DNA from: an uncultured Acidobacteriota bacterium
GTDB lineage: Bacteria; Acidobacteriota; Vicinamibacteria; Fen-336
Length of the DNA stretch: 64,000 bases
Reading direction: 5' to 3'
Assembly: GCA_963697835.1 (NCBI GenBank)
Contig: CAVOPG010000001.1
Location: 772,764-836,763 of the forward strand
Made by a program: the position numbers and the translations under genes. The notes under the pieces are model-generated. The model was not told where the DNA came from. It was given only the letters and a program-made list of their open reading frames with translations, and did no database searches. How positions within the stretch are numbered: the first letter of the stretch is position 1; the number at the start of each line of letters is the position of its first letter. Of this stretch, positions 47,306-60,909 are shown in pieces.

Positions 47306-48146
47306 ATGCGCACGACACGGCTTTTCCCCGCGGTCATCCTCGCCTTGGCACCGCTGGCGTCCGCGCAGACGCCGCCGACCGGCGGGGCGGACCCCCGGGC
47401 CGGCCGGGGGTTCATCGCGACGCCGGTGTTCTCCGCGGAGGCGGACCAGCAGCTCCTCGCTCTCTTCGAGGGCCTGCGCGTCGCCGACGTGACCGACGGC
47501 ATGGACGCGGTGGGCCTGCCGAACGTGGGTCTCATGGACCCCGAGGTGCGGCCCGCTCTGGAAGGACACGCAGGACTTCACCCACCGCTTCATCGGGATC
47601 GCGGTCACCGCGCGCTACGTGCCGACGCAGCGCGCGCAGGCGGGGAAGCGGCCCGGTCGAGGAATACGACAAGTGGTCGGGAGAGTGGTACGACGCGCTC
47701 TCGCCCGAGCCGTTCCAGGACCTCCTCCGGCCCGGCACCGCCCTCGTCATCGACGACGCGGAGCGGGCCGACGTCGGCTCCATCGGCTCGAACAACATCC
47801 TGGCCTGGAAGAGCCGCGGGATGGTCGGCGTCGTCACGAACGCCACCGCCCGCGACACGGACGAGATCGTCACCGAGAAGGTGCCGCTCTACTTCCGCCG
47901 GCCGGGCCGCGGGATCCGGCCCGGCCGGAACGAGATCGAGTCGGTGAACCGCCCGATCGTCTGCGGCGGGGTGCTCGTCGTCCCGGGCGACGTGATCGTG
48001 GCCGACGGCGACGGCGTCCTCGTCGTCCCCCGCGCCGTCGCCGCCGAGGTGGCCCGCTACGCGAAGCGCATCCTCGAGACGACAAGGACGGCCGGCGCCA
48101 GCTCTACGAGAAGCTGGGCCTGCCCCCCGATCCTTCCATCAAGTAG
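47306..48146 (+). CDS. RraA/HMG-aldolase-family protein with signal peptide (frameshifted)
   Basis: LRVADVTDGMD, IGIAVT, IGSNN, ARDTDE, PGDVIVADGDGVLVVPR. Confidence 0.82.
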
Positions 48147-50265
48147 ACGAGAGGCCGGCCGTAGCCCCGCCTCCGGCTCCTCCCCGTCGGAGCAGGAGGA
48201 AGACGGCGAGGTAGAAGAGCAGGGCGACGGCGAGCAGGAAGCGGAAGCCGAGGATGAGCGAGAGGTACTCCGCCGTCCCCCCGAGGACTGCGCCGAGGAC
48301 GTTCGAGCCGTAGGCCTCGTAGAGGCGGGTCTCGTTCTCGATGAGCCGCGCGAAGATCAGGCCGCCGAAGTAGACCGGTCCCAGGAAGAGAGCCACGGCG
48401 GCGATCGCCCGCGCCCCGGGGGAGAGCCCGAGGAGCGCGTCGGCGGGCAGGATCGACGCGGCCAGGATGAGGCCGGCGAGGAGCGCCACGCAGGCGCCGA
48501 TGGGCACCCGCCACCGGGCGGCGGTGAGGTTGCCCAGCAGGACGAGGACGAGGATCCCGGCGAACACCACGGTGTTGACCCACCACGTGGAGCCGTAGAG
48601 GAGCGCCATGCGCACCACGTTGCTCGTCTCCAGCAGGAAGAATGCGGCGCCGAGGAAGAAGTAGGGCAGGCGGACCCGGCGCTCGCCGCGGGGGAGCACG
48701 AGGAGGGAGGCGGCGCTCATCGCCACCGCCACGAGCAGGAAGAAGACGTTGTGGCCGGGAATGCCCCGCTCGCGCAGGTACAGGAACGGCCAGTCGTCGG
48801 TCGGCACGAGGGCACGGCGGCGGGGGATCTCGGCGGGAAGGGAGCGCTCGTTAAGGTAGAGGACGCCGTTGGCGTAGCCCTTCCGGTCGGTCGTGAACAG
48901 GGTGGGGCGGGAGAAGCTGCGATCGAGGAGGGCGAGGAGCCGCTCGTGGATCCACGCCTCGTTGCTCGCGAAGCTCAAGGCGACGCGCCCGCCCGGGGCG
49001 AGGAGCCGCCGCACCTCGGCCATCGCCTCCTGCGTGTAGATGAAGTTGTCGAGGCGCACCGAGGAGAAGGCGGACAGCAGGCGGTGGCTGTCCAGGAAGC
49101 CGAAGACCACGAGCGCGTACCGGCCGCTCGGGGCCCGATGGAAGTAGGACCGCGCGTCGTCGATCACGAGGGTGACGCGGGGGTCCTCGTAGGGCCGCTC
49201 GGCATGGAGCCTCCGCCCGAGGGCGGCGATGGCGGGGTCGATCTCCACCGCGGTCACCGGCCTGTCCGTCCGGCGCAACGCCGCCGCCACGTCGTTCCCG
49301 GTGCCGGCTCCCACCACCAGCACGTCGCCCGGGGGCAACGCCCCCATCCCCGCGTAGTCCGCGTACGGTGCGTCGTAGAACGACCGCCACCCGGACAGGA
49401 AGGCGTGCTCCCGCGGGCGCGGCCGGAGGTCGAGCATCATCTGGTGGTAGTCGCTGTTCACCGTCACCACGTGGCCCACCGTCCCTCCGAGCTCGACGAA
49501 GCCGTGGCTGTCGGCATCCAGGACCCGGGTGAGCGGCGCGACCGAGATGCGGTAGTAGGGGGACCAGACGTAGCGCTGCGACTCCGTGTGGGTGGCCGCC
49601 ACGAGGGCCACCCCGAGGAGCGCGGCGAGGGCTCCGTCCGGCAGGGGCCGGGGCAGCATGAGCACCAGGAGGAGCGTGCCGACGGCAAACCACGCGGCGG
49701 GCGAGGTCTGCCACCAGGACAGGAGCGCGAAGAGGCCGATCCCCGCCAGGCTGCCCGCGACCTCCATGCTGTAGGCGCGCAGCGGCGGGTGCGTGCGGAA
49801 GAGCCGGCCCAGGTACTGGCCGAACGCGGCGAAGACGGCGGCGGTGGCGCCGTAGACGAGGACGAGGACGAGGCCGACGGAGACGATCCGGCTCGCCTCC
49901 GCTCCCGGCGAGGCGATGCCCAGCGGCGCCCCGATCCAGATGTACTCGTCGCGACCGGACGGGTTCGGGTGCCACAGCCGGCCGAGCCAGACGCCGAGCA
50001 TGGTCACGAGAGCGGCGAGCGGCGCGATCAGCCGCTCGAGGCGTACCGGGTAGCGCGTGGCGAGGGCCCCGACGCCGAGGCCGAAGAAGGCGGAGATCAG
50101 GACCAGGTTCGAGAAGTAGGCCACGATCCGGATCGACGCCCCCAGCCAGCGGATGAGGACGAGCTCCCAGAAGAGCGCCGCCATCCCGCAGAGGAACAAT
50201 CGGCTCGCGTTCGCGTCCCACCCGCGGCGCGGCGGCACGGTGTCGGCGTCGGGATCGCTGGTCAT
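48139..50265 (-). CDS. Multi-TM spermidine-synthase-like SAM-dependent methyltransferase
   Basis: WELVLIRW, WSPYYRI, VLVVGAGTGNDV, VEIDP, DDAR, PTDDWPFLY, YGSNVLGA. Confidence 0.85.
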   Translation of the reverse strand: MTSDPDADTVPPRRGWDANASRLFLCGMAALFWELVLIRWLGASIRIVAYFSNLVLISAFFGLGVGALATRYPVRLERLIAPLAALVTMLGVWLGRLWHPNPSGRDEYIWIGAPLGIASPGAEASRIVSVGLVLVLVYGATAAVFAAFGQYLGRLFRTHPPLRAYSMEVAGSLAGIGLFALLSWWQTSPAAWFAVGTLLLVLMLPRPLPDGALAALLGVALVAATHTESQRYVWSPYYRISVAPLTRVLDADSHGFVELGGTVGHVVTVNSDYHQMMLDLRPRPREHAFLSGWRSFYDAPYADYAGMGALPPGDVLVVGAGTGNDVAAALRRTDRPVTAVEIDPAIAALGRRLHAERPYEDPRVTLVIDDARSYFHRAPSGRYALVVFGFLDSHRLLSAFSSVRLDNFIYTQEAMAEVRRLLAPGGRVALSFASNEAWIHERLLALLDRSFSRPTLFTTDRKGYANGVLYLNERSLPAEIPRRRALVPTDDWPFLYLRERGIPGHNVFFLLVAVAMSAASLLVLPRGERRVRLPYFFLGAAFFLLETSNVVRMALLYGSTWWVNTVVFAGILVLVLLGNLTAARWRVPIGACVALLAGLILAASILPADALLGLSPGARAIAAVALFLGPVYFGGLIFARLIENETRLYEAYGSNVLGAVLGGTAEYLSLILGFRFLLAVALLFYLAVFLLLRRGGAGGGATAGLSST

Positions 50266-50428
50266 GCGGCCCAGGATAGCCGACCGAGCCCCCGGATCGG
50301 ACAAGCCGGGGTCAGCGACAGGCCGGGCCGCAGCGGGACGCCCGCTCCGGGACGTGTTGAGCGCCCGAACTCGTTCTTAATCTAGTCATCCAGCGCGCGG
50401 TGTGGCGCGTCCAATACGCGTCCATCCC

Positions 50429-50459
50429 TTGACTTGGTGGCGGATGCCGGGGCTAGGCT
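50429..50459 (+). promoter_or_regulatory. Putative sigma-70 promoter of leader 1
   Basis: TTGACT-N19-TAGGCT, 14 nt before the ATG at 50474. Confidence 0.5.
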
Positions 50460-50473
50460 GTTGTCAACATCCC

Positions 50474-50761
50474 ATGTTGTGCTTGAAGCGCAAGGCGAGC
50501 CTCGCCCTCGTCGCGGCGGTCCTGCTGGCAGCCCTCGCCGGCGGGTTCGTCGGCGACTTCCTCCACACGGACGACGGCTGCACGTTGGAGACGCACTGCC
50601 TCGCGTGTCAACGGGCAGTCGGGTCGCTGGCCGTCGTCGTCGCGAACCTCGGGGTCCCGGCGACGCTCCAGCCCCTCGGACGCGTCAGCGACCCGCCCAC
50701 CGTCGCCCTCGCCCCCGCCGCGATCCGCACCGGGGTCCCCCGGGGTCCTCCTCAGGCCTAG
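50474..50761 (+). CDS. Leader ORF 1: DUF2946/CruR-like putative metal-sensing arrest peptide (95 aa)
   Basis: Hydrophobic N-terminus, HTDDGCTLETHCLAC, 44-aa spacer, C-terminal RGPPQA; lies upstream of a TBDR. Confidence 0.8.
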   Translation: MLCLKRKASLALVAAVLLAALAGGFVGDFLHTDDGCTLETHCLACQRAVGSLAVVVANLGVPATLQPLGRVSDPPTVALAPAAIRTGVPRGPPQA

Positions 50762-50849
50762 CTCCCGAAGAGAGCGGCTGGCTCCGCCAGCCAGGGGCGC
50801 TCTTCCCGAAGAGGGGAGCGCACGGCCTTTTTCGTCGCTAGCTGAGGAG
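50748..50849 (+). promoter_or_regulatory. Putative SD-sequestering RNA structure
   Basis: CTCCTCAG (50748-55) is the reverse complement of CTGAGGAG (50842-49). Nested stems GCTCCC/GGGAGC and GGCTGGC/GCCAGCC lie between them. Confidence 0.65.
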
Positions 50850-50859
50850 TTGTCCAACC

Positions 50860-53309
50860 ATGCGGTCCATTCCCACGCGTTTCGTCGCATTCGCCCTCGC
50901 CCTGCTGTTCCCGGCGCTGGCCGCTCGCGAAGCCCATGCCGCCGCCGGCTCCATCCGCGGACACGTTCTCGGTCCCGACGGGCGCGCCGTGTCCGGTGCG
51001 ATCGTCGAGCCTTCGAAACGACATCACCGGCTTCAAGACCGAGACCACGACCGACGCCGCCGGCGCGTACCAGTTCTTCAACGTGCCCTTCAACCCGTAC
51101 GAGATCCACGTCGAGGTCCAGGGCTTCGCGCCCGTCCACCGGCCGGTCGACGTGAGGTCGCCCGTTCCACTCGATGTCCCGATCTCGCTCAAGCTCGCCG
51201 GCGTCAAGGAGGCGGTGACCGTGACCGCCGAGAAGACCGCGGCGCAGCTCGAGACGGACACGTCGATGTCGCACGTGGACATCGACAAGTCCTACATCGC
51301 CCGCGCCCCGGCGAGCGTCGCCTCGCGGGCCATGGAGGAGCTGATCACCGCCACCCCCGGCTTCGCCAAGGACGAGAACGGACGCTACCACTTCCAGGGC
51401 TTCCACAGCCAGGGCCAGTTCGTGATCGACGGGCAGACGATCTCGGACCAGACGGGCGTCACGTTCTCGAACTCGATCGACCCCGGCATCGCCCAGTCGA
51501 TGGAGGTCATCTACGGGAACGTCCCCGCCGAGTACGGCGAGAAGGTCGGCACCGTCGTCAACCTGGCCACGAAGTCCGGCCTCGGCACTCCCTTCCACGG
51601 CGATGTCTACGGCGGCGCCGCCCGCTACGCCACCTACGAGGGCGGCCTCGCCCTCGGGGGCGGATCGCGGAACCTGGCGGCCTTCGCCTCGCTCAACGGC
51701 TCGTGGTCCGACCGCTTCCTGGATCCGGTGAACTTCGACAGCCTGCACAACACCGGCGACACCCAGCGCGGCTTCCTGCGCCTCGACTACGCCTCCGACG
51801 ACCTCCGGGACCAGGTGCGCTTCACCGTGCTCGCCGGCCGGACGAACCGCGACGTGCCGAACACCTTCACGCAGGAGGACGCCGGCCAGGACCAGCAGGT
51901 GAGGAGCCGGGACCAGAACTACAACCTGGGCTGGACGCACCTCGTGTCGACCAAGGCCACGCCTCGACGCGAGCGCCTTCGGCCGGGTGTCCACCTTCGA
52001 GCTCCTGCCCTCGGCCGGCGACACGCCGGTCACCGCGACCTCGGACCGCAGCCTCGACAACTACGGCCTGAACGCGGCGGTGACCTGGGTTCCGAACCCG
52101 CACCACGAGGTGAAGGTGGGAGGCGTCGTCAAGCGGTTCCCGATCGACGAGACGTTCAGCTTCGGCCTGACCGACCCCGGCTTCAACGATCCCGAGGCCG
52201 ACGGCTACAACCCCGACCTGGCGCCCTACGATCTCACCCGCGGCGGCCAGCCGCTCTTCTTCCAGGACAAGAGGACCGGCACGTACGCGGCCGGCTTCGT
52301 CCAGGACAACGTCCACTACGGCGGGCTCACCGCCAACCTCGGCCTACGCTACGACCACAACAACCTGCCGACGACCGAGGACCAGCTCCAGCCGCGCGTC
52401 GGCCTGGCCTACTACGTCAAGGCGAGCGGGACGGTGCTGCGGGCGTCGTACAACCGGATCTTCGTCACCCCCGAGTACGAGAACATCCTCTTCGGCTCGT
52501 CGGAGCTGGCCGCTTCCGTCGTCCCTCCCGAGGTCAAGGACTCGCGCGAGCTGGGCGGAGGGGTGCTGCTCAACCGCTCGGAGCGCCAGAACGCCTACCT
52601 GGTGGGCGTGCAGCAGGCGATCGGGCCGAGGCTCCGTCTCGACGCCGACTTCTGGTGGCGCCGGGCGACGTACCCGGCCGACCAGGACCAGTTCCTGAAC
52701 ACCGGGATCGTCTTCCCGATCACGTTCACCGAAGGCCGCCACAACGGCTGGGACGTCCGTCTCGACCTCGCACCGACGCACGGCGTCCGCGGCTTCGTGT
52801 CCCTCGGCCACACCCACGCCGTCTACGTGCCGCCGCCGGTGGGCGGGCTCTTCCTGGACGTGGAGGCGATCGACGCCATCACCGGCGGGCCGTTCCTGAT
52901 CGACCACGACCAGAAGCTCCAGGCCCAGGGCCAGCTCTTCTGGGACCTCGGGAGAAGCGGGGCCTGGCTCGGCGCCAACGTGCGCTACGACTCCGGCCTC
53001 GTGACCGACGCCGACCCCGAGGAGCTGCGGCAGAACCCCGACGACTTCTTCGCCGCGCCCTACGTCGTGGTCCACACCGGCGGCGATCTCGATCCGAACC
53101 GGATCAAGGAGCGGACGATCGCGAGCTTCTCCGCCGGCCTCGACCTCGCCCGGCACGGCGTGCCGCTGTCGCTCCAGGCCGACCTGCTGAACGCCTTCGA
53201 CACCCAGGGCGTCTACAACATCCAGTCGGTCTTCGGCGGCACGCACGTGATCCCGCCGCGGACGCTGGCCGTGCGGCTGCGCTACCGCTTCGGCGGCAAG
53301 CGGAGCTGA
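50860..53309 (+). CDS. TonB-dependent receptor (frameshifts near 51010 and 51960)
   Basis: Signal peptide, carboxypeptidase-regulatory-like domain, DENGRYHFQGFH, IDGQTISDQ, NLGLRYD, PRVGLAY, GGTHVIPPR. Confidence 0.9.
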
Positions 53310-53381: not shown

Positions 53382-54253
53382 TCAACGCCCGGTGGTGACC
53401 GCGTCGGTCGCGGCCCCGCCGGCCTGAGCCTTGGCGTAGTCGAGCTGGCTGCCCCGCAGGCTGTGGGGGACGAGGTAGACCGCGATCATCACGAGCGCGG
53501 CGGCGACGGTCGTCCACCGAGCGACGCGGTCGGTCGGATCCTGGCGCCGCCCCAGCACGACGACGGCCGCCACCCAGGCCAGCCACATCCCGAGCGTCTT
53601 GTTGTCGGTCAGGTCGGTGCCGAACGGCCAGCCCGTCCAGAAGGCCCCGAAGGCGTACTTCTGGACGATCGGGCCCAGGACGAGCCCGCCGATCGCGATT
53701 CCCACGACCGCGACCCACGCGTATCGCCGGGACTCGGGCCGGCCGAGGACCGCGGCGAGAGCGGCCCGGACCCCGATCATCATCGACACGAACATCGTCA
53801 CCACGTGCGGGATCAGCACGAGGGCCGGCACGTCGCCCTTGAAGCGCATGACGACGGGCTCGCCTTCCGGGCACCCGGACCGGCCCGGTGGGCGTCGCGA
53901 GCGTGACGAAGTACTCGACCTTCCCGGCCGGCGGCTGGGTCGGCAGGAGGGCCGCGAGCGTTCCGCCCTCGCGGCTCATCGCCACGTCGCGGAACGGCTC
54001 GCCGGTGCGGGTAGCGCCGGTAGTGCACGACGCCCGCGACGCCGTCGGGCGCCGAGATCGCCACCATGAACGGCTCGCCCGAGACCGACGAGCGCAGGAG
54101 GCGCCACCGCACGTCCTGCCCGGCGATCTCGGTCCGACCGCGACGCGGGTGGGTGGGCCCGGTGAGGCGCTGCCAGACGGCGGCGGCCACCATGAGAGCG
54201 AGCGCGGCGAGCCAGAGGAGGGCGGCCGATCGGTGGCTTCGCGGGTCAGGCAC
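53382..54253 (-). CDS. Conserved hypothetical membrane protein (frameshifted)
   Basis: WQRLTGPTHP, LPTQPPAGKVEY, RFKGDVP, LIPH, GPIVQKYAFGAFWTGWPFGTDLTDNK, PHS. Confidence 0.75.
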
Positions 54254-54290
54254 CGGCGAAAAGTAGCACGGCTTCGATCGTCGGGGAAGG

Positions 54291-55139
54291 TCAGGCCGGC
54301 TGCGCGGCGCCTCGCCGGAGGAGCGGCCTCACCGCCGCCATGAGGATCAGGACGAGGCCGAAGGTGCAGACCATGGCCGCCCCGGTGGGCAGGTCCAGCT
54401 TCACCGAGAGGTAGATGCCGAGGGCGGAGACGACCGTTCCCATCGTCCAGCCGATCGCGAGGCGCGGGCCGATGCGGTCGGCGTAGAGCATGGCCGCCAC
54501 CGAGGGCACGATCAGGTAGCAGAAGACGAGCAGCACCCCGGCGATGAGCACCGACGAGGTCACCACGAAGCCGAAGGAGGCGTAGAAGAGGAAGTCCCAG
54601 AACTTGACGGAGATCCCGTCGCGCTCGGCCTTCTCGTGGTCCATGGAGATGGCCAGGAACTGCCGGCGGAAGACGTAGTGGAAGGCCCCGATGACCGCGT
54701 AGAGGGCCGCGGTCTTGGCCACCTCCCACCACGAGACGGCCAGGATGTTGCCGACCAGCATGTCCTTGAGGTGCTCGCTCTCCGAGGTGGCCTTGCTCAT
54801 CGCCAGGATCGTGGCGGCGGAGGCCACCGCGTAGGCGATGCCGATGATGGCCTCCTGGGGGATGCGGGCCCGGCGGATCCTGATCGTCGAGAAGATGGCC
54901 GCCCCGATGAAGGTGAAGACGAGGCCCGTCCAGTAGACCCAGGGCCCGTGGGGGTCCTGCCCGGTGAAGGGAAGCAGGATCGCGATGGTCGAGCCGAGGG
55001 CCGCGATCTGGGCGAGGGAGAGGTCGACGAAGATGACGCCGCGCTCGACCACGTGCACGCCGAGGTAGGCGTGGATGCCGGTGAGGATCAGGCTGGCCAC
55101 GAAGGGAGCGGCCAGGAACTTCAGGATTTCGAGGTCCAT
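54291..55139 (-). CDS. Metal ABC-3-type permease (ZnuB/MntB-like)
   Basis: HAYLGVHVVERGVIFVDLSLAQIAALG, QEAIIG, GVLLVFCYLIVP, DLPTG. Confidence 0.9.
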   Translation of the reverse strand: MDLEILKFLAAPFVASLILTGIHAYLGVHVVERGVIFVDLSLAQIAALGSTIAILLPFTGQDPHGPWVYWTGLVFTFIGAAIFSTIRIRRARIPQEAIIGIAYAVASAATILAMSKATSESEHLKDMLVGNILAVSWWEVAKTAALYAVIGAFHYVFRRQFLAISMDHEKAERDGISVKFWDFLFYASFGFVVTSSVLIAGVLLVFCYLIVPSVAAMLYADRIGPRLAIGWTMGTVVSALGIYLSVKLDLPTGAAMVCTFGLVLILMAAVRPLLRRGAAQPA

Positions 55140-56058
55140 CTACTTCGCCCCCGTTTCCTTGATCACCGCGACGAGCAGCTTGAGGTCGTAGTCGAAGAGC
55201 GCGATGTAGTCCGTGATCTCCTTCTCGCCCCCGACCGAGGGCGGCATCACGAGCACCTTGGCGCCGGTCTCGCGGCCGATCGACTGCGGCGTCTTGAGGT
55301 CGAAGTAGGGCTCGACGAGCAGGATCTTCACGTTCTGCCGCTTCATCTCGCCGATCAGCTCGATCGTGTGGCCGGGCGAGGGCGGGATGCCGGGCCGCGG
55401 CTCGACGTAGCCGATCACGTCCAGGCCGAAGCGATCGGCGAAGTTGGGCCAGGAGCGGTGGTAGGTCACGACCTTCAGGCCCTTGTAGGGGGCCATCATG
55501 CGCGTCCCACCGCTTCTCGGCTTCGGCCAGCCGCTTGTCGAAGTCGGCGTAGCGGGTCGCGAAGTAGGCCGCGTCGGCGGGCGCCATGCGGGCGAGCTTG
55601 TCCGCGATCGCCTTCGCGATGCGCCGGCCGTTGTCCGGGTCGAGCCAGTAGTGCGGGTTCCCGAGGGGGTGGACGTCGCCCATCGCGCGGGTGATCTGGC
55701 CGGTGGGGATCTCGAGGATCTTCGCGGTGAGCGAGGCGTCGAGGTAGCCGTCCGCCCCCACCTGGATCTTCGCGTTGCGGCTCTGCTGGATGAGCGGCGG
55801 CAGCCAGCCGATCTCCAGCTCCCGGCCCACGGCCACGAGGAGGTCGGCCTTGGCGAGCTTCAGGATGAAGCTGGGCTTGGCCTCGACGAAGTGCGGGTCC
55901 TGGTAGCCGCGGGCGATCGTCTCCACCTTGACCCGGTCGCCGCCCACCTGGCGGGTGAGGTCGGCCAGGTCCTCGGTGCTGGCGATGACGTTGACGGCGG
56001 CGCCGGCCGGCGGCACGACGGCCAGGGCGGCGAGAGTGGCGATGCTCAGGAGTCTCAT
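55140..56058 (-). CDS. Metal ABC substrate-binding protein (ZnuA/TroA cluster A-I-like); frameshift near 55500
   Basis: QDPHF, GDVHPLGNPHYWLDP, TYHRSW, EPRPGIPPSPGH. Confidence 0.9.
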
Positions 56059-56070
56059 GGCGACCTCGAT

Positions 56071-57390
56071 CTAGAAGGGATGGGCGCCGTGGGCGCCGAT
56101 CGCGAAGAGGAACTGGAAGAGAAGCTCGTCGGCCGGGCTGTCGTTCGGCGAAGCTCGTGCGGCGGTACTGGGCGCGGACCAGGCTGAACTCGCTCGGCCA
56201 GTAGGTCAGGATGAACGAGCCGCCCGTGTCCCGGAGCCCGGGCGCGTCGGCCCGCTCCGAGTTGTCGTAGCGAAGGCCGGCGGTCCAGCGCCTCCCGAAC
56301 TGGTACTCGAGGAAGCCATAGCCGCCGACGGCGTCGACCGCCTCCGGCTGCTCCCGGCGGCTCCACGTCACCTCGCCGCGCGCGAGGAAGTGCGTGTAGA
56401 TCGAGCGTCGCAGGGGCTTCCACCGCAGCGTGGCGTCGACGCCGAGGAGGCGCGTCGTGGTGTCGTCGGTGACGCCGTTGTGGCCGTACGCGATCGAGCC
56501 GCCGAGGTCGACGTTGGTCGACTCGCCGAGGTCCTGGTAGGCGCGCAGGTGGCCGACGTAGGCGAGGTCGCCTCGCGTCGGGGCCTTGAACACCTCGGAG
56601 TTGCCCTGGTAGACCTGACCGGTCGCCTCCAGGAAGAGCCACGGGTTCGGGATGAGGCGGGCGACCGAGATCCCGGCGTCCGCGAGGCCGTCCTCGCCGC
56701 CGAGTGAGGTTCGTCGACACGAGAGGCCGGTCGAGCGAACGGGAGCGTGTGCGGGTGCTGCCCGTTCACCTTGCCGAAGGCGTCGCGCATCTTCCCGACC
56801 TTCGTGAGGAAGCCGCCGGGGAGGGTCGGGAACGTGATGTAGCCCTCCTCGAGCGCCACCTCGTCCGGCGCCAAGGTGACGAAGAAGTCGGCCCGCGCGT
56901 ACGGATCGACGACGGCCTGGAAGGCGAGCTCCGCCTCCTGCATGTTGAGCGACGGCTCCCCGCCTCCCGGCGACTGGCCGGCGGCTCCGACGAAGTTGCC
57001 GATGGCCGCGATGTCGGGGTTGAAGACCTTCGAGGCGGCGGCTCCGCCCCCGTAGACGGGAAGCGCGCCCGGGGTGCCCTCGCCCGCGGCACCCGGCGGG
57101 ACGGCCGCCGTCGCCGGTTGCGACGTCGGCTCAGGAGGCGGCGGGGCCGGCGGGGCGGCGGGGGTTCCCTCGAGCGCCGCGATCCGGGACTCGATCGCCG
57201 CCATGCGGCTGCCGTACTCCTGGCGCAGGGCCTCGAGATCGTGCCTCAGCTGGGAGATCTCCTCGCCGGCGGGGGGCGCGGCGCTCTGTGCCGGCGGGCT
57301 CTCGGCGGCACCGCCGGAGCGGGGGGCAACGACCGTCAGGACGCTGCCGGCCAGGGTGAAGGCCGTGACGACGCGAGGCCATCGACGCAT
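56071..57390 (-). CDS. Outer-membrane beta-barrel protein with His-containing C-terminus (frameshifted)
   Basis: Signal peptide, coiled coil, FNPDIAAIG, EAELAFQAVVDPY, EEGY, FGKVNGQHPH, PSEFS, C-terminal IGAHGAHPF. Confidence 0.82.
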
Positions 57391-57486
57391 GTGTCCCTCG
57401 AGCACGGAACCGGATCCCATCGATGCCCGATCCCGGCCGCGCTGTGAAGAGCGGCGGCCGGGTCCGGCCGGAGCGGACTGGAACGG

Positions 57487-57763
57487 TCAGGCGCGGGGGC
57501 GGCCCGCGCGACGAGACGCTGCGGGGGGCTTCGTCTTCGAGCGATGGCGGGAGCACGGGGGCGACCCGGTCCACGGCGGCCACGACCCGCGGCAGGGAGA
57601 ACGCCTCCGTCACGACGCCGGGGGTTCCGAGCCTGAGGAGACAGGCGTTGCAGTGCGTCTCGACGACGCAGCCGTCGTCCGAGTGGACGAGCGACTCTTC
57701 GAGAATCGCTACGGCCACGCCGAGCAGGACGAGCGCGACGACGACCAGTCTCCTGGGCTGCAT
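57487..57763 (-). CDS. Leader ORF 2: paralogue of leader 1 (RGPPRA-stop if one G of the run at 57495-99 is removed)
   Basis: Hydrophobic N-terminus, HSDDGCVVETHCNAC, 44-aa spacer, RGPP. Confidence 0.78.
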
Positions 57764-57882: not shown

Positions 57883-57912
57883 TTGACGGGCGAAAAAGCG
57901 GGCCGGTATACT
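57883..57912 (+). promoter_or_regulatory. Sigma-70 promoter of padR
   Basis: TTGACG-N18-TATACT, followed by the inverted repeat CTCG-N10-CGAG (possible PadR operator). Confidence 0.6.
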
Positions 57913-57936
57913 CGTGTAGGTAACCGAGGGGAGCTG

Positions 57937-58266
57937 ATGAGCAAGCCGACCGATCTCGTCCAGGGCACGCTGGACCTCCTGATCCTGAGGGTGATCGCCG
58001 TCGAGCCGATGCACGGCTGGGCCATTGCTCAGCGGATCCGGCAGATGTCCAGGGACGAGCTGCGGGTGGGGCAGGGCTCCCTGTACCCCGCCCTGCACAA
58101 GCTCGAGCAGCAGGGCTGGATCGAGGCCGAATGGGCGGCCAGCGAGAACAACCGGCGGGCGAAGTACTACACGCTGACGAGAGCCGGCCGCAAGGCGCTG
58201 GAAAGCGAGACGGCGCAGTGGGAAAGGCTGTCGGCAGCCATCTCGCTCGTCGTGCGTCGAGCCTGA
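57937..58266 (+). CDS. PadR-family regulator, acidobacterial type
   Basis: QGTLDLLIL, HGWAI, GSLYPALHKLE, SENNRRAKYY. Confidence 0.95.
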   Translation: MSKPTDLVQGTLDLLILRVIAVEPMHGWAIAQRIRQMSRDELRVGQGSLYPALHKLEQQGWIEAEWAASENNRRAKYYTLTRAGRKALESETAQWERLSAAISLVVRRA

Positions 58267-58278
58267 GGACGCGACGCA

Positions 58279-60909
58279 ATGCGGTGGACCACGAAGCTCC
58301 GTCTCCGTTCTCGCTCGCTTCTCCAGGCATCCCGCGTCGAGGAGGAGCTCGACGAAGAGCTGGGTTTTCATCTCGAGCGTCTCACCGACGAGAACATCGC
58401 GAACGGGATGACGCCGGCGGATGCCCGCTACGCCGCCCTTCGCGAAATGGGCGGGCTCGACCAGCGGAAGGAAGAGGGCCGCGACGCGCGGGGCCTGGCG
58501 GCCTTCGACAACGTCCGTCAGGACCTCAGATACGCGGTCCGGGGGCTTCGGAAGAGCCCGGGATTCACAGGCGTCGCCGTACTGTCCCTCGCGCTCGGCA
58601 TCGGCGCGAACACGACGATCTTCACCTTCGTCAATGCCGTCCTGCTCCGCCCCCTGCCGTATCCCGCTTCGGACCGGCTGGTCATCCTGCGTGAGCAGCC
58701 GGCTGGCTCCGCCGGCACCGTCGCCGTCCATCCGCTGAACTTTCTCGAGTGGAGCGCTCGCGCGAGATCCTTCGAGGCGCTCGCGCTGGTACAGACTCCT
58801 CCGCTCAACGTGATGGGGGCGAGCGGCGCCGAACAGGTCACCCGGGTCCAGACGACATCGGAGCTGTTTCGCGTCTTCGCCGTTCAACCGATCCTGGGGC
58901 GAGTGTTCACCCGGGAAGAGACACGGCCTGGGGATGGCGCCGTCGTGATCCTCGGCCACGGCTTGTGGCAGCGTTGGTTCGGCGGCGATCCGACGGTGCT
59001 CGGGCAGAGACTCGCCGTGCGCGAGGGTTCGCTCACGATCGTCGGCGTGGCCCCCCCCGGACTTCGAATCGGCCCGTTCGAGCCCGACGCGTACACACCC
59101 TTGCCGATCGATCCAGCGAGGCCGGACTCGATCGGCTCGCGCTCGTTCCAGTGCTACGGCCGGCTGAAGGGAGGGGTCGGCGTCGAGGCCGCCCGCGCGG
59201 AAATGGCCGTCATCGCTTCCTCCCTCGCTCGTCAGTACCCGCTGGACGAAGGATTCGGCGTGTTCGTGGCCGGGCTGCACGAGTATCTCGTCCGGGAGGG
59301 GCGTCCGGCCTTGCGCCTCCTGATGGCGGTCGTCGCGATCGTGCTCGTGATCGCGTGCGTGAATCTCGCCGGTCTGCTCATGGCCCGCGGCATTCGCCGT
59401 CGCGGTGAGTTCGCCGTGCGCGCGGCGCTCGGTGCCAGCCGCGCGCGTCTCGTCGCACAGCTGGTCATCGAGAGCCTCGTGCTGTCCTCACTCGGCGGCG
59501 CGGTCGGACTCGCCCTCGCGTACTGGGCGACGCGGGCGCTGGAGACGCTCACCGGCGGAGCGCTCACCGTCGGCAGCGCGGAGCCGATCCGCCTGGAATC
59601 CACCTGTCTGGTCTTCACGCTCCTGGTCGCCACCCTGACCGCGCTCTCGTTCGGGCTCGTTCCCGCCTGGCACGCGAGCCGCGCCGAGCCGCAGACCGCG
59701 CTCGGAGAGCGGACCCGGGGAGGCACCCTCGATCGCCGGCAACATCGGCTGAGGAGCGCGCTGGTGGTGAGCGAGGTCGCCCTGGCCGTCGTGCTGCTCG
59801 TGGGCGCCAGCCTGCTGCTGCGCACTTTCGGGCACCTCGTCCGCGTCGATCTCGGCTTTCAGCCCGCCGACACGATCACCATGGGGCTCTTCCTCGGCGA
59901 GCGTCCGGCCGAAGCTCGAATCGCACTCGTGGACCAGATCCTCGAACGCGTCGAGGCGTTGCCCGGAGTCGAGGCCGCGAGCACGATCCAGTTCCTGCCC
60001 CTGTCGGGGATGGACTGCGGAACCGGCTTCTGGCCCGAGGGACAGGCGCCGGGGGATCCGTCGGGCGCGTTGCCGACGGGATGCTCGTTGGTCAGCCGTG
60101 GGTACTTCGCCGCCATGGGGATTCCCGTCCTGGACGGGCGCCCCTTCGAGCGCCGCGACCGCCTGGGCAGCCCGCGCGTGCTGGTGGTGAACCAGTCGTT
60201 CGCGAAGCGGTACTTTCCTGGAGGTCGTGCGCGGGGACGCCGCATCCTCGTGGAGTCGTCGAACCAGGCGCTCGCGGAGATCGTCGGAGTCGTCGGCGAC
60301 GTTCGCCACAACGGATTGACGTCCGAGCCGCTGCCGACGGTGTTCCTTCTGCACGCGCAGACGCCCGGCTACATCACGAACCTCGTCGTCCGGACCTCCG
60401 GGGACACTGGCGCGCAGGCGGCCGCCATCCGGCAGGCCATCCGCGAGGTGGATCCGAGCCAGGCCGTGTCGGCGGCGAGGACCATGGAGCACTACGTCGG
60501 AGACGAGCTCCGGAGGCCCCGCATGTACGCCGCGCTGGTGGCGTGCTTCGCGGTGCTCGCGGTGATCCTGGCGGGCGTCGGAATCTACGGCCTCGTGGCC
60601 TACGACGTCACCCAGCGGACGCACGAGATCGGCATCCGAATGGCACTCGGCGCCTCGCGTCGCCACGTCTTCCGCGCGACGTTCTCCCAGGGCGTGCGGC
60701 TCACCTTCACTGGCCTCGCCCTCGGCGTCGTGGCGGCGGCAGGGCTTCGGGGAGTGGTCTCGGCCCTGCTCTTCGGGGTCACACCCGGCGATCCGGTCAG
60801 CTACCTGCTCGGCGCCGTCGTGTTTGCCGCGGTCGCCCTCGTGGTGGCGGCGCTGCCTGCCCGCCGGGCGTCCCGCGTGGATCCGGCTACGGCGTTGCGA
60901 TACGAGTGA
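58279..60909 (+). CDS. ADOP-family duplicated MacB/FtsX-like ABC permease
   Basis: [60 protein letters not shown]. Confidence 0.93.

Follow-up and report, generated by a model that had tools for sequence, protein, structure and literature searches.

In a 64,000-nt stretch of the genome of an uncultured Acidobacteriota bacterium (Vicinamibacteria, Fen-336; assembly GCA_963697835.1, contig CAVOPG010000001.1, positions 772,764 to 836,763 of the forward strand; hereafter the window), a 95-amino-acid open reading frame (ORF) on the forward strand, named leader 1 (50474..50761), precedes a gene for a TonB-dependent receptor, and the codons of its C-terminal Arg-Gly-Pro-Pro (RGPP) motif are complementary to the Shine-Dalgarno (SD) sequence of the receptor gene. 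This complementarity was confirmed as a real feature of the window. Leader 1 appears to be a regulatory upstream ORF (uORF) of the same kind as CruR and CutF, and the explanation towards which we lean, by no means firmly, is that a ribosome stalled at the motif unmasks the SD sequence of the receptor gene. In that event, the stalled ribosome would probably switch the receptor gene on.

The leader 1 product starts with the K/R-rich sequence MLCLKRK and continues with a hydrophobic stretch of ~19 residues (MLCLKRKASLALVAAVLLAALAGGFVG), the segment HTDDGCTLETHCLAC and a Pro/Ala-rich linker, ending with PRGPPQA immediately before the stop codon. The charged N-terminus and the hydrophobic stretch are conserved, as judged by eye, in an alignment of 38 related proteins (described below), and the hydrophobic segment is a putative export signal or anchor. 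The codons at 50564..50608 (forward strand) encode HTDDGCxxExHCxxC (H31-C45), a putative metal site recognized from the invariant alignment columns, and 44 residues lie between the last Cys of its CxxC (C42xxC45) and R90, the first residue of the RGPP motif (codons CGG GGT CCT CCT, 50741..50752, forward strand). The end of the ORF (50741-50761) reads CGG GGT CCT CCT CAG GCC TAG (R G P P Q A stop), so that this small ORF has R-[A/G]-P-P shortly ahead of its stop codon, as in arrest peptides of the RAPP/RGPP type. Following the site assignment given for RAPP motifs in the text of PMC12992588, the P site of a stalled ribosome would be expected at 50747-50749 and its A site at 50750-50752. A genome search identified only two copies of the leader in the host, leader 1 and a paralogue, leader 2, which is encoded on the reverse strand of the window. 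As to the region upstream of leader 1, no SD sequence is present ahead of its ATG (50474), and a scan of 50200-51000 returned no promoter-like sites; the sequences TTGACT (50429-50434) and TAGGCT (50454-50459), 19 nt apart, were noticed by eye and would mean a very short 5' untranslated region.

A sequence-only reading of this DNA had claimed that the Pro-Pro-Gln codons CCT CCT CAG, with CCT being unusual, contain the exact complement of the segment that holds the SD of the receptor gene, that flanking CTAG/CTAG can extend the pairing, and that the pairing encloses nested stems. All of this was borne out. The three codons are present, and CTCCTCAG (50748-50755) is the exact reverse complement of CTGAGGAG (50842-50849), which ends with the SD core AGGAG (50845-50849) 10 nt before the receptor ATG (50860); the 3' tail of the host 16S rRNA is GATCACCTCCTTTCT. 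In the host genome, CCT accounts for 6.7% of 52,789 Pro codons, and CCTCCT for 1.5% of 3,897 Pro-Pro dicodons. The minimum free energy (MFE) fold of 50720-50880 has an energy of -74.0 kcal/mol and joins 50747-50755 to 50842-50852 and CUAGC (50758-50762), which includes the stop codon UAG (50759-50761), to GCUAG (50837-50841). The anti-SD strand, CCUCCUCAG (50747-50755) plus CUAGC (together 50747..50762), and the SD strand, GCUAG-CUGAGGAG (50837..50849), both on the forward strand, enclose nested stem-loops at 50766..50834 within the spacer of 98 nt that separates the leader 1 stop from the receptor ATG. The SD is predicted to be paired in this region, with all eight SD bases pairing within 50744-50762 at a probability (P) of at least 0.98, and replacement of both CCU codons with CCG in silico reduced pairing with the anti-SD window to 0.16 or less for seven of the eight bases.

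Homologues were collected in two steps. A word-indexed search yielded 38 proteins, nearly all of 92-96 amino acids and one of them labelled by its source as a Vicinamibacteria hypothetical protein, in the alignment of which H31, T32, D33, D34, G35, C36, E39, H41, C42 and C45 are invariant and R90, G91, P92 and P93 nearly so. An exhaustive profile search then yielded 209 representatives (50% clusters) at E <= 1e-3; among the best 150 of these, 143 end with R[GA]PP and 130 contain both motifs. At the DNA level, 108 loci were compared, comprising 26 from species genomes, the best 80 of 211 metagenome loci and the two copies in the window (W1 for leader 1 and W2 for leader 2; L-numbers denote homologous loci). 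The 26 genome loci all derive from metagenome-assembled genomes labelled Acidobacteriota/Vicinamibacteria, save one Patescibacteria group. The metal motif followed by R[GA]PP was found in 104 of the 108 loci (RGPP in 72 and RAPP in 32), with a His-to-Arg spacing of 59 residues in 92, 60 in 10 and 58 in 2, and in the family layout two or three residues separate R[GA]PP from the stop codon (two after PP in 90 loci). The exceptions are L035, which shows no motif match; L068, in which no R[GA]PP occurs within 70 residues after the metal motif, possibly because it is out of frame; L087, in which the contig ends; and L102, the C-terminus of which is ARPPPIS. For 81 distinct loci a downstream start could be assigned, and their spacers are mostly 65-134 nt long. 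The downstream product is a CarboxypepD_reg TonB receptor in 54 of the 79 proteins scanned, which together with W1 and two short fragments of its clade make up a receptor class of 57 loci; the other 24 loci are followed mostly by genes for porin-like or secreted proteins with no family assignment. In one metagenome locus (L071), the leader lies 161 nt upstream of a gene for an ArsP-type permease, not an outer-membrane protein.

Codon usage at the arrest motif was counted in 92 distinct leaders, with the host genome as background. At the first Pro codon, CCT was found in 48 leaders, CCG in 38, CCC in 4 and CCA in 2, and at the second, CCT in 45, CCC in 36 and CCG in 11. T-ending codons at the invariant positions Thr32 (ACT) and Gly35 (GGT) were found in 0 and 5 of the 92 leaders, respectively. 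In the genome as a whole, CCT makes up 13.6% of the first codons of Pro-Pro pairs; at gene ends, it represents 7.5% of 1,591 Pro codons in the last eight codons and 12% of the first codons of Pro-Pro pairs. In the W1 clade (29 sequences), the two Pro codons end with T in 28 and 27 sequences, and the third bases of the Arg and Gly codons vary freely. The bias of the arrest-motif codons towards the complement of the SD thus holds family-wide, as judged by these counts and by the recoding described below. A separate observation concerns the Gly codon of RGPP (50744-50746 in the window), which is GGT in 22, GGA in 17, GGC in 17 and GGG in 5 members of the family, compared with GGC in 62, GGG in 17, GGA in 8 and GGT in 5 at Gly35; this third-base shift departs from the usual bias in G+C content at third codon positions, and SD pairing offers no explanation for it.

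Pairing across the family was measured between the six-base SD core and the arrest window, which extends from the Arg codon to 12 nt beyond the stop codon and represents about one-sixth of the folded RNA. Pairing with P > 0.5 was predicted in 49 of the 81 loci (mean 0.54), at a mean overall probability of 0.86 that the SD is paired, and among receptor-linked loci in 42 of 57 (mean 0.66); sequestration of the SD by the arrest window is thus predicted for most TonB-receptor-linked loci. When the codons from Arg to the last sense codon were redrawn according to genome usage (eight draws per locus), the mean P fell from 0.55 to 0.15. The native sequence gave the higher value in 63 of 80 loci (Wilcoxon p = 1.7e-11) and, with the proteins clustered at 60% identity, in 21 of 27 clusters. 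At least six contiguous Watson-Crick pairs with the 11-nt SD segment were found in 36 of the 81 arrest windows, and at least seven in 19, the latter compared with 5, 2, 1 and 0 in four equal-sized upstream control windows. The form of the SD tracks the end of the leader: CCU CCU C.. or GCU CCU CC faces GAGGAG, and CCN CCC CUC GCC, found in leaders ending with RAPPLA, faces CGAGG(U), with P of 0.5-0.8 in most cases. In the first 28 loci, with kinship ignored, cognate duplexes averaged -14.75 kcal/mol compared with -12.73 +/- 0.49 kcal/mol for permuted ones (p = 5e-5). RNAalifold analysis of 29 sequences of the W1 clade retained the CUCCU:AGGAG helix in 27-29 of the 29, and in single-sequence folds of W1, L034 and L050 the inner hairpins are closed by a CUCCUC:GAGGAG helix.

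The spacer itself was also inspected. In the W1 clade it appears to contain about three hairpins (alignment columns 45-120; 50766-50834 in the window), the sequences of which differ by sub-clade and yet fold; they may act in spacing, in pausing of RNA polymerase or in protection from RNases. An Rfam search identified no family in the spacer, returning two unrelated sub-threshold matches outside it. An intrinsic terminator in the spacer was considered and rejected, with no terminator-like site in 50200-51000, as was a U-run at 50824-50828 as part of a terminator, since no stem immediately precedes it and L001 does not preserve it. Apparent covariation in the bases flanking the helix core (A-U in W1, G-C in L003, U-A in L007 and L010) extends the helix in about half of the loci, which is about as expected for two random flanks, and was therefore not counted as evidence.

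The effect of a stalled ribosome was computed by imposing a footprint on the RNA. With 50747 in the P site, a footprint of -15/+15 extends over 50732-50762, a segment that includes both 5' arms of the helix (50747-55 and 50758-62). The energy required to open the ribosome-binding region of the receptor gene (-16 to +5, with a forced footprint of 28 nt) was 14.9 kcal/mol in the free W1 RNA, 9.8 kcal/mol with the ribosome at the arrest site, and 15.4 kcal/mol with the ribosome 45 nt upstream. Over the 81 loci, the mean opening energy decreased from 12.67 kcal/mol in free RNA to 10.30 kcal/mol at the arrest site, compared with 12.39 kcal/mol for a footprint 45 nt upstream (p = 3e-8). The idea that a stalled ribosome would cover the anti-SD and free the SD, which was part of the sequence-only reading, therefore stands in its first half; as for the second, the SD becomes easier to open and a weak local hairpin remains.

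Based on these computations, the following mechanism is proposed. As long as the mRNA is free, its arrest codons would combine with the stop region (CCUCCUCAG..CUAGC) as the 5' strand of a 13-bp long-range helix that closes the structured 98-nt spacer and buries the SD of the receptor gene. A ribosome arrested with Pro92 in the P site would sit on this 5' strand, leaving the SD in a weak local hairpin only and making the receptor gene translatable. Binding of a metal to the nascent peptide would, by analogy with CruR, relieve the arrest, whereupon termination would allow the helix to re-form and the receptor would be turned off. The metal is likely to be the Zn/Mn-type substrate of a neighbouring ATP-binding cassette (ABC) importer, with some uncertainty. 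Rho-dependent polarity may run in parallel: an untranslated receptor mRNA would presumably be exposed to Rho anyway, and the two mechanisms are thus compatible.

Several observations weigh against this reading. At the level of the single locus, the 8-mer occurs 4 times in the window compared with 3.62 expected, and the W1 fold is not exceptional (z = -1.41; 23 of 200 shuffled sequences fold at least as well); the match is thus within chance, and its significance comes solely from the comparison across relatives. Fold predictions are noisy in RNA of 70% G+C, the value for the window. With the footprint imposed, the W1 SD moves into a weak hairpin with 50870-50877 that is not conserved, and the probability that the SD is paired is still 0.78 in W1 and 0.76 on average in the family. 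Across the family, the four control windows reach at least six pairs in 14, 4, 14 and 4 of the 81 loci; 32 of the 81 loci, and 9 of the 29 in the clade of W1, are not predicted to pair, among them L001 (P = 0.04), the closest of the genome relatives; outside its 6-bp core, the helix is extended irregularly and often with mismatches; and correction of the statistics for phylogeny is incomplete. Compensatory covariation is absent from the helix (RNAalifold covariation term 0.12 kcal/mol), because both strands are nearly invariant. Loci outside the receptor class pair in 7 of 24 cases (mean 0.27), with the porin-linked clade keeping the arrest motif, and the clade of leader 2 (W2, L009, L014, L083, L104 and L106) shows essentially no pairing. 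For leader 2 itself the probability that the SD pairs with the arrest window is 0.01, in agreement with the weak equivalent pairing noted by eye in the sequence-only reading. SD masking is therefore not the sole or universal output of the family. Finally, the output demonstrated for CruR, according to the text of PMC9426467, is Rho-dependent termination.

This last point requires consideration of the relationship with DUF2946, the family to which CruR belongs (Bp2923 of Bordetella pertussis, a uORF preceding the TonB-dependent transporter gene bfrG; text of PMC9426467) and in which CutF of Rhodobacter capsulatus was placed by its authors (PMC9973294, bioRxiv 10.1101/2025.02.05.636593). The leader 1 protein matched no Pfam or NCBIfam model over threshold, with DUF2946 (PF11162) reaching E 1.6 and 9.9 bits, below the cut-off of 23.7. 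The same model was matched sub-threshold by 25 of the 38 family members (E up to 10; best E 0.0033), in an alignment that runs from HCxxC through the RAPP end of the model. No protein of the host genome matched PF11162 over the cut-off, and canonical DUF2946 proteins were found in 4 of the 201 genomes of the phylum searched (E <= 0.001), which are too few for a good bridging profile. Three acidobacterial DUF2946 proteins read HCVxC[HQ], ~45 amino acids, and RAPP plus 2-4 amino acids, and hhalign against these gave a probability of 89% (E 2.3e-6) over 58 columns covering the transmembrane segment and HCxxC, with a template of three sequences only. The spacing of 44 residues between CxxC and the arrest motif in leader 1 agrees with that in CruR, in which CXXC lies 45 +/- 2 residues before RAPP (text of PMC9426467). 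As described in the text of Fujiwara et al. (2025, PMC12992588), proteomes strongly avoid RAPP/RGPP sequences, the C-termini of small exported uORFs located upstream of TonB receptor genes are enriched in them, and CruR arrest was demonstrated in vitro. Leader 1 is thus outside PF11162 by formal membership and has the architecture expected, from its sequence, of a divergent arrest uORF of the CruR/CutF kind.

In CruR, the nascent chain senses copper, upon which the arrest is relieved and Rho-dependent termination is allowed (text of PMC9426467). Leader 1 might act likewise: arrest at RGPP would shield a C-rich, rut-like stretch from Rho, and release would lead to termination in the spacer, with SD pairing being auxiliary or serving to close the spacer. 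The remote similarity to DUF2946 (25 of 38 sub-threshold matches to PF11162; hhalign probability of 89%) and the shared spacing of metal and arrest motifs fit this explanation, as do the long structured spacers, which resemble those of cruR, and the presence in the genome of a rho gene (three matches to the RNA-binding domain over the cut-off). The last ~60 nt of the leaders are richer in C (45-52%) than in G (27-30%) between -60 and +15 of the Arg codon in 84 loci, but this may follow from the Pro/Ala-rich peptide, and neither a terminator nor a rut site could be called from the sequence. The porin-linked clade including leader 2, with its arrest motif and without SD pairing, needs another output, which Rho could provide. 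Termination of this kind leaves unexplained, however, why CCU is used at both Pro codons in about half of the leaders and why SD pairing is lost upon synonymous recoding. We consider it unlikely as the principal output, though worth keeping in view, and it does not exclude SD unmasking.

The codon evidence admits another interpretation, namely that CCU was selected for other reasons (mRNA stability, the need to avoid long runs of C or G, or an effect of codon or tRNA on how strong the arrest is) and that SD complementarity is a by-product, CCUCC being the complement of the SD by definition. The helix core is indeed the universal SD/anti-SD sequence, neither side of which varies, the third base of Gly91 is also shifted in a manner that pairing does not explain, and 9 of the 29 members of the clade are not predicted to pair. 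By-product complementarity is nevertheless difficult to reconcile with clades that have other SD forms, which use other codons complementing their own SD (as in the RAPPLA leaders), and with the preference for CCU over CCC, 48 to 4, at the first Pro codon. CCU and CCC are usually read by one tRNA according to wobble rules. Whole clades encode the arrest motif with CCG and CCC, and arrest therefore does not require CCU; in addition, the RAPP of CruR is encoded by frequent codons (text of PMC9426467). A purely codon-level role of CCU in arrest is thus unlikely, and the by-product interpretation as a whole appears improbable. Least probable is that the leader 1 product is simply a small metal-binding protein of the periplasm or membrane, for example a chaperone, with a protein-level role for RGPP and RNA pairing by chance: its conservation as a normal ~95-amino-acid ORF, the presumptive nature of stalling in this family and the weak single-locus statistics would allow this, but RGPP/RAPP is avoided in proteomes and enriched near the C-termini of small exported uORFs preceding TonB receptor genes (text of PMC12992588), in 104 of 108 loci the motif keeps a constant spacing from the metal motif and is followed by the stop after 2-3 residues, and selection at synonymous sites indicates an RNA-level function.

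The genes surrounding leader 1 bear on the metal that may be sensed. The receptor gene (50860..53309, forward strand) encodes CarboxypepD_reg, Plug and barrel domains according to Pfam matches, and single extra bases near 51010 and 51960 break its ORF into three frames; contigs of relatives are one base shorter at 51010 (X6) and at 51960/51961 (X1, X3 and X6). Leader 1 and the receptor gene converge on a reverse-strand operon (53382-57763) headed by leader 2 (HSDDGCVVETHCNAC ... SSRGPP, ~57763-57480; tblastn E 1.3e-6). The frame of leader 2 continues past RGPP, the stop codon being lost at a run of five C, and its orthologues L009, L013, L014 and L025 have RGPP, two residues and a stop. On the same strand, leader 2 is followed by a gene (ATG 57390) for a porin-like outer-membrane protein that has a coiled coil at its N-terminus, and then by genes for a cluster A-I substrate-binding protein (SBP; from 56058, 55489-56058, with frame shifts after ~190 amino acids), an ABC-3 permease recognized by its family match (54291-55139) and a pair of small membrane proteins not assigned to any family (53813-54253 and 53382-53849). 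The genome assembly has a size of 6.96 Mb in 9 contigs and a completeness of 65%. Many single-base indels appear to be present in it, and assembly errors of this type, rather than decay of the system, most likely account for the frame breaks in the receptor gene, in the SBP gene and in leader 2. Contigs of relatives were used solely for these indel checks; the 22 sequencing runs found cover a share of the stretch of at most 0.19, and none is listed as RNA. Two further features lie nearby. Directly upstream of leader 1 and on the opposite strand, 48139-50304 encodes a 721-amino-acid multi-pass membrane protein with a spermidine-synthase/methyltransferase-like domain. On the forward strand, a PadR-family regulator gene (57883-58266) is followed by duplicated MacB_PCD/FtsX permease genes (58279-60909; 57883-60909 in all), a pair typical of Acidobacteriota.

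The SBP and the permease match the AztC/AztB, ZnuA (zinc) and MntC (manganese) models, all with scores far below the cut-offs and hence too low to separate zinc from manganese. Homologues of the permease, and likewise of the SBP, are located within 3.5 kb of a leader in 10 of the 26 genome loci. This importer context, together with the ligand set of the leader motif (His, Asp, Cys and Glu, with no Met), suggests Zn or Mn rather than Cu as the sensed metal. Combining these elements, the leaders may be Zn/Mn-sensing nascent-peptide switches in which the same nine bases spell the stalling residues and the anti-SD, with two outputs, namely unmasking in the TonB-receptor clades and transcriptional attenuation in the porin/ABC-operon clades. 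This fuller proposal is tentative and, taken as a whole, may well prove wrong in one part or another.

Some elements of this system are already known, namely the action of a stalled ribosome on an SD-sequestering helix (CutF, and also secM and mifM) and the association of RGPP/RAPP uORFs with TonB receptors. The new elements, as read from sequence comparison, are a subfamily of leaders in Vicinamibacteria, the metal motif of which is extended, the association of this subfamily with uptake genes of the Zn/Mn type, numerical support for selection of the arrest codons as an anti-SD, and sister clades without this feature. Among the matches listed in a search of the literature, no publication joined arrest peptides, an anti-SD and TonB-dependent transport; the text of PMC12992588 mentions neither the SD nor secondary structure, and no RNA-level mechanism or codon analysis was found in it. 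The published outputs of leaders of the DUF2946 kind differ, being Rho-dependent termination for CruR and melting of an SD-shielding stem-loop for CutF, and the present family would place an output of the CutF/SecM type before an importer gene. In most receptor-linked members, one short sequence appears to be under selection at both the protein and the RNA level, and since the pairing is missing from sister clades that retain the arrest motif, the family offers a natural test bed for separating the two outputs. The occurrence of a Zn/Mn-type ABC importer near the leader in 10 of 26 genome loci hints at sensing of a metal other than copper; if true, this would be the first nascent-peptide switch for zinc or manganese. 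For a soil phylum that has been little studied, the family also provides a first candidate for post-transcriptional regulation by metal. The advance is incremental, because the general principle was already known.

In secM-secA and mifM-yidC2, arrest near the C-terminus of an exported leader puts the ribosome on the 5' arm of an SD-sequestering helix, and leader 1 shares this design in its predicted form. Leader 1 also has the RAPP/RGPP core of ApdA and ApdP. SecM, MifM, ApdA and ApdP, however, monitor Sec or YidC and are released by the pulling force of export, whereas the present family carries a metal-ligand motif and is followed by outer-membrane uptake genes. Its members fit the class described in the text of PMC12992588, being small and putatively exported, with a C-terminal RGPP/RAPP and a TonB receptor gene downstream. 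CruR and leader 1 are alike in preceding a TonB-dependent receptor gene, in having HCxxC ~45 residues before R-A/G-P-P, and in their export signal (putative in leader 1) and long structured spacer. The arrest of CruR is required for downstream expression under metal scarcity, and the same logic is assumed for leader 1. The two differ in that the RAPP codons of CruR are frequent ones and its context is one of copper genes, whereas leader 1 is found next to a Zn/Mn-type ABC importer; the text of PMC9426467 makes no mention of SD sequestration. In CutF-cutO, as is presumed for leader 1, a small exported upstream peptide carries a Cys metal motif and a C-terminal Pro-rich stalling motif, and CutF-like genes are reported to be frequent neighbours of TonB-like genes (PMC9973294, bioRxiv 10.1101/2025.02.05.636593). 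In CutF, however, the anti-SD (CTTC) lies in an intergenic stem-loop, whereas in leader 1 the arrest codons and the stop region themselves provide the anti-SD across a 98-nt spacer. The target of CutF is a detoxifying oxidase and copper raises stalling; the target of leader 1 is an importer, and the metal would therefore be expected to relieve stalling. The metal motifs (CxxxC in CutF and HTDDGCxxExHCxxC in the leader family) and the lineages (Alphaproteobacteria and Vicinamibacteria, respectively) also differ.

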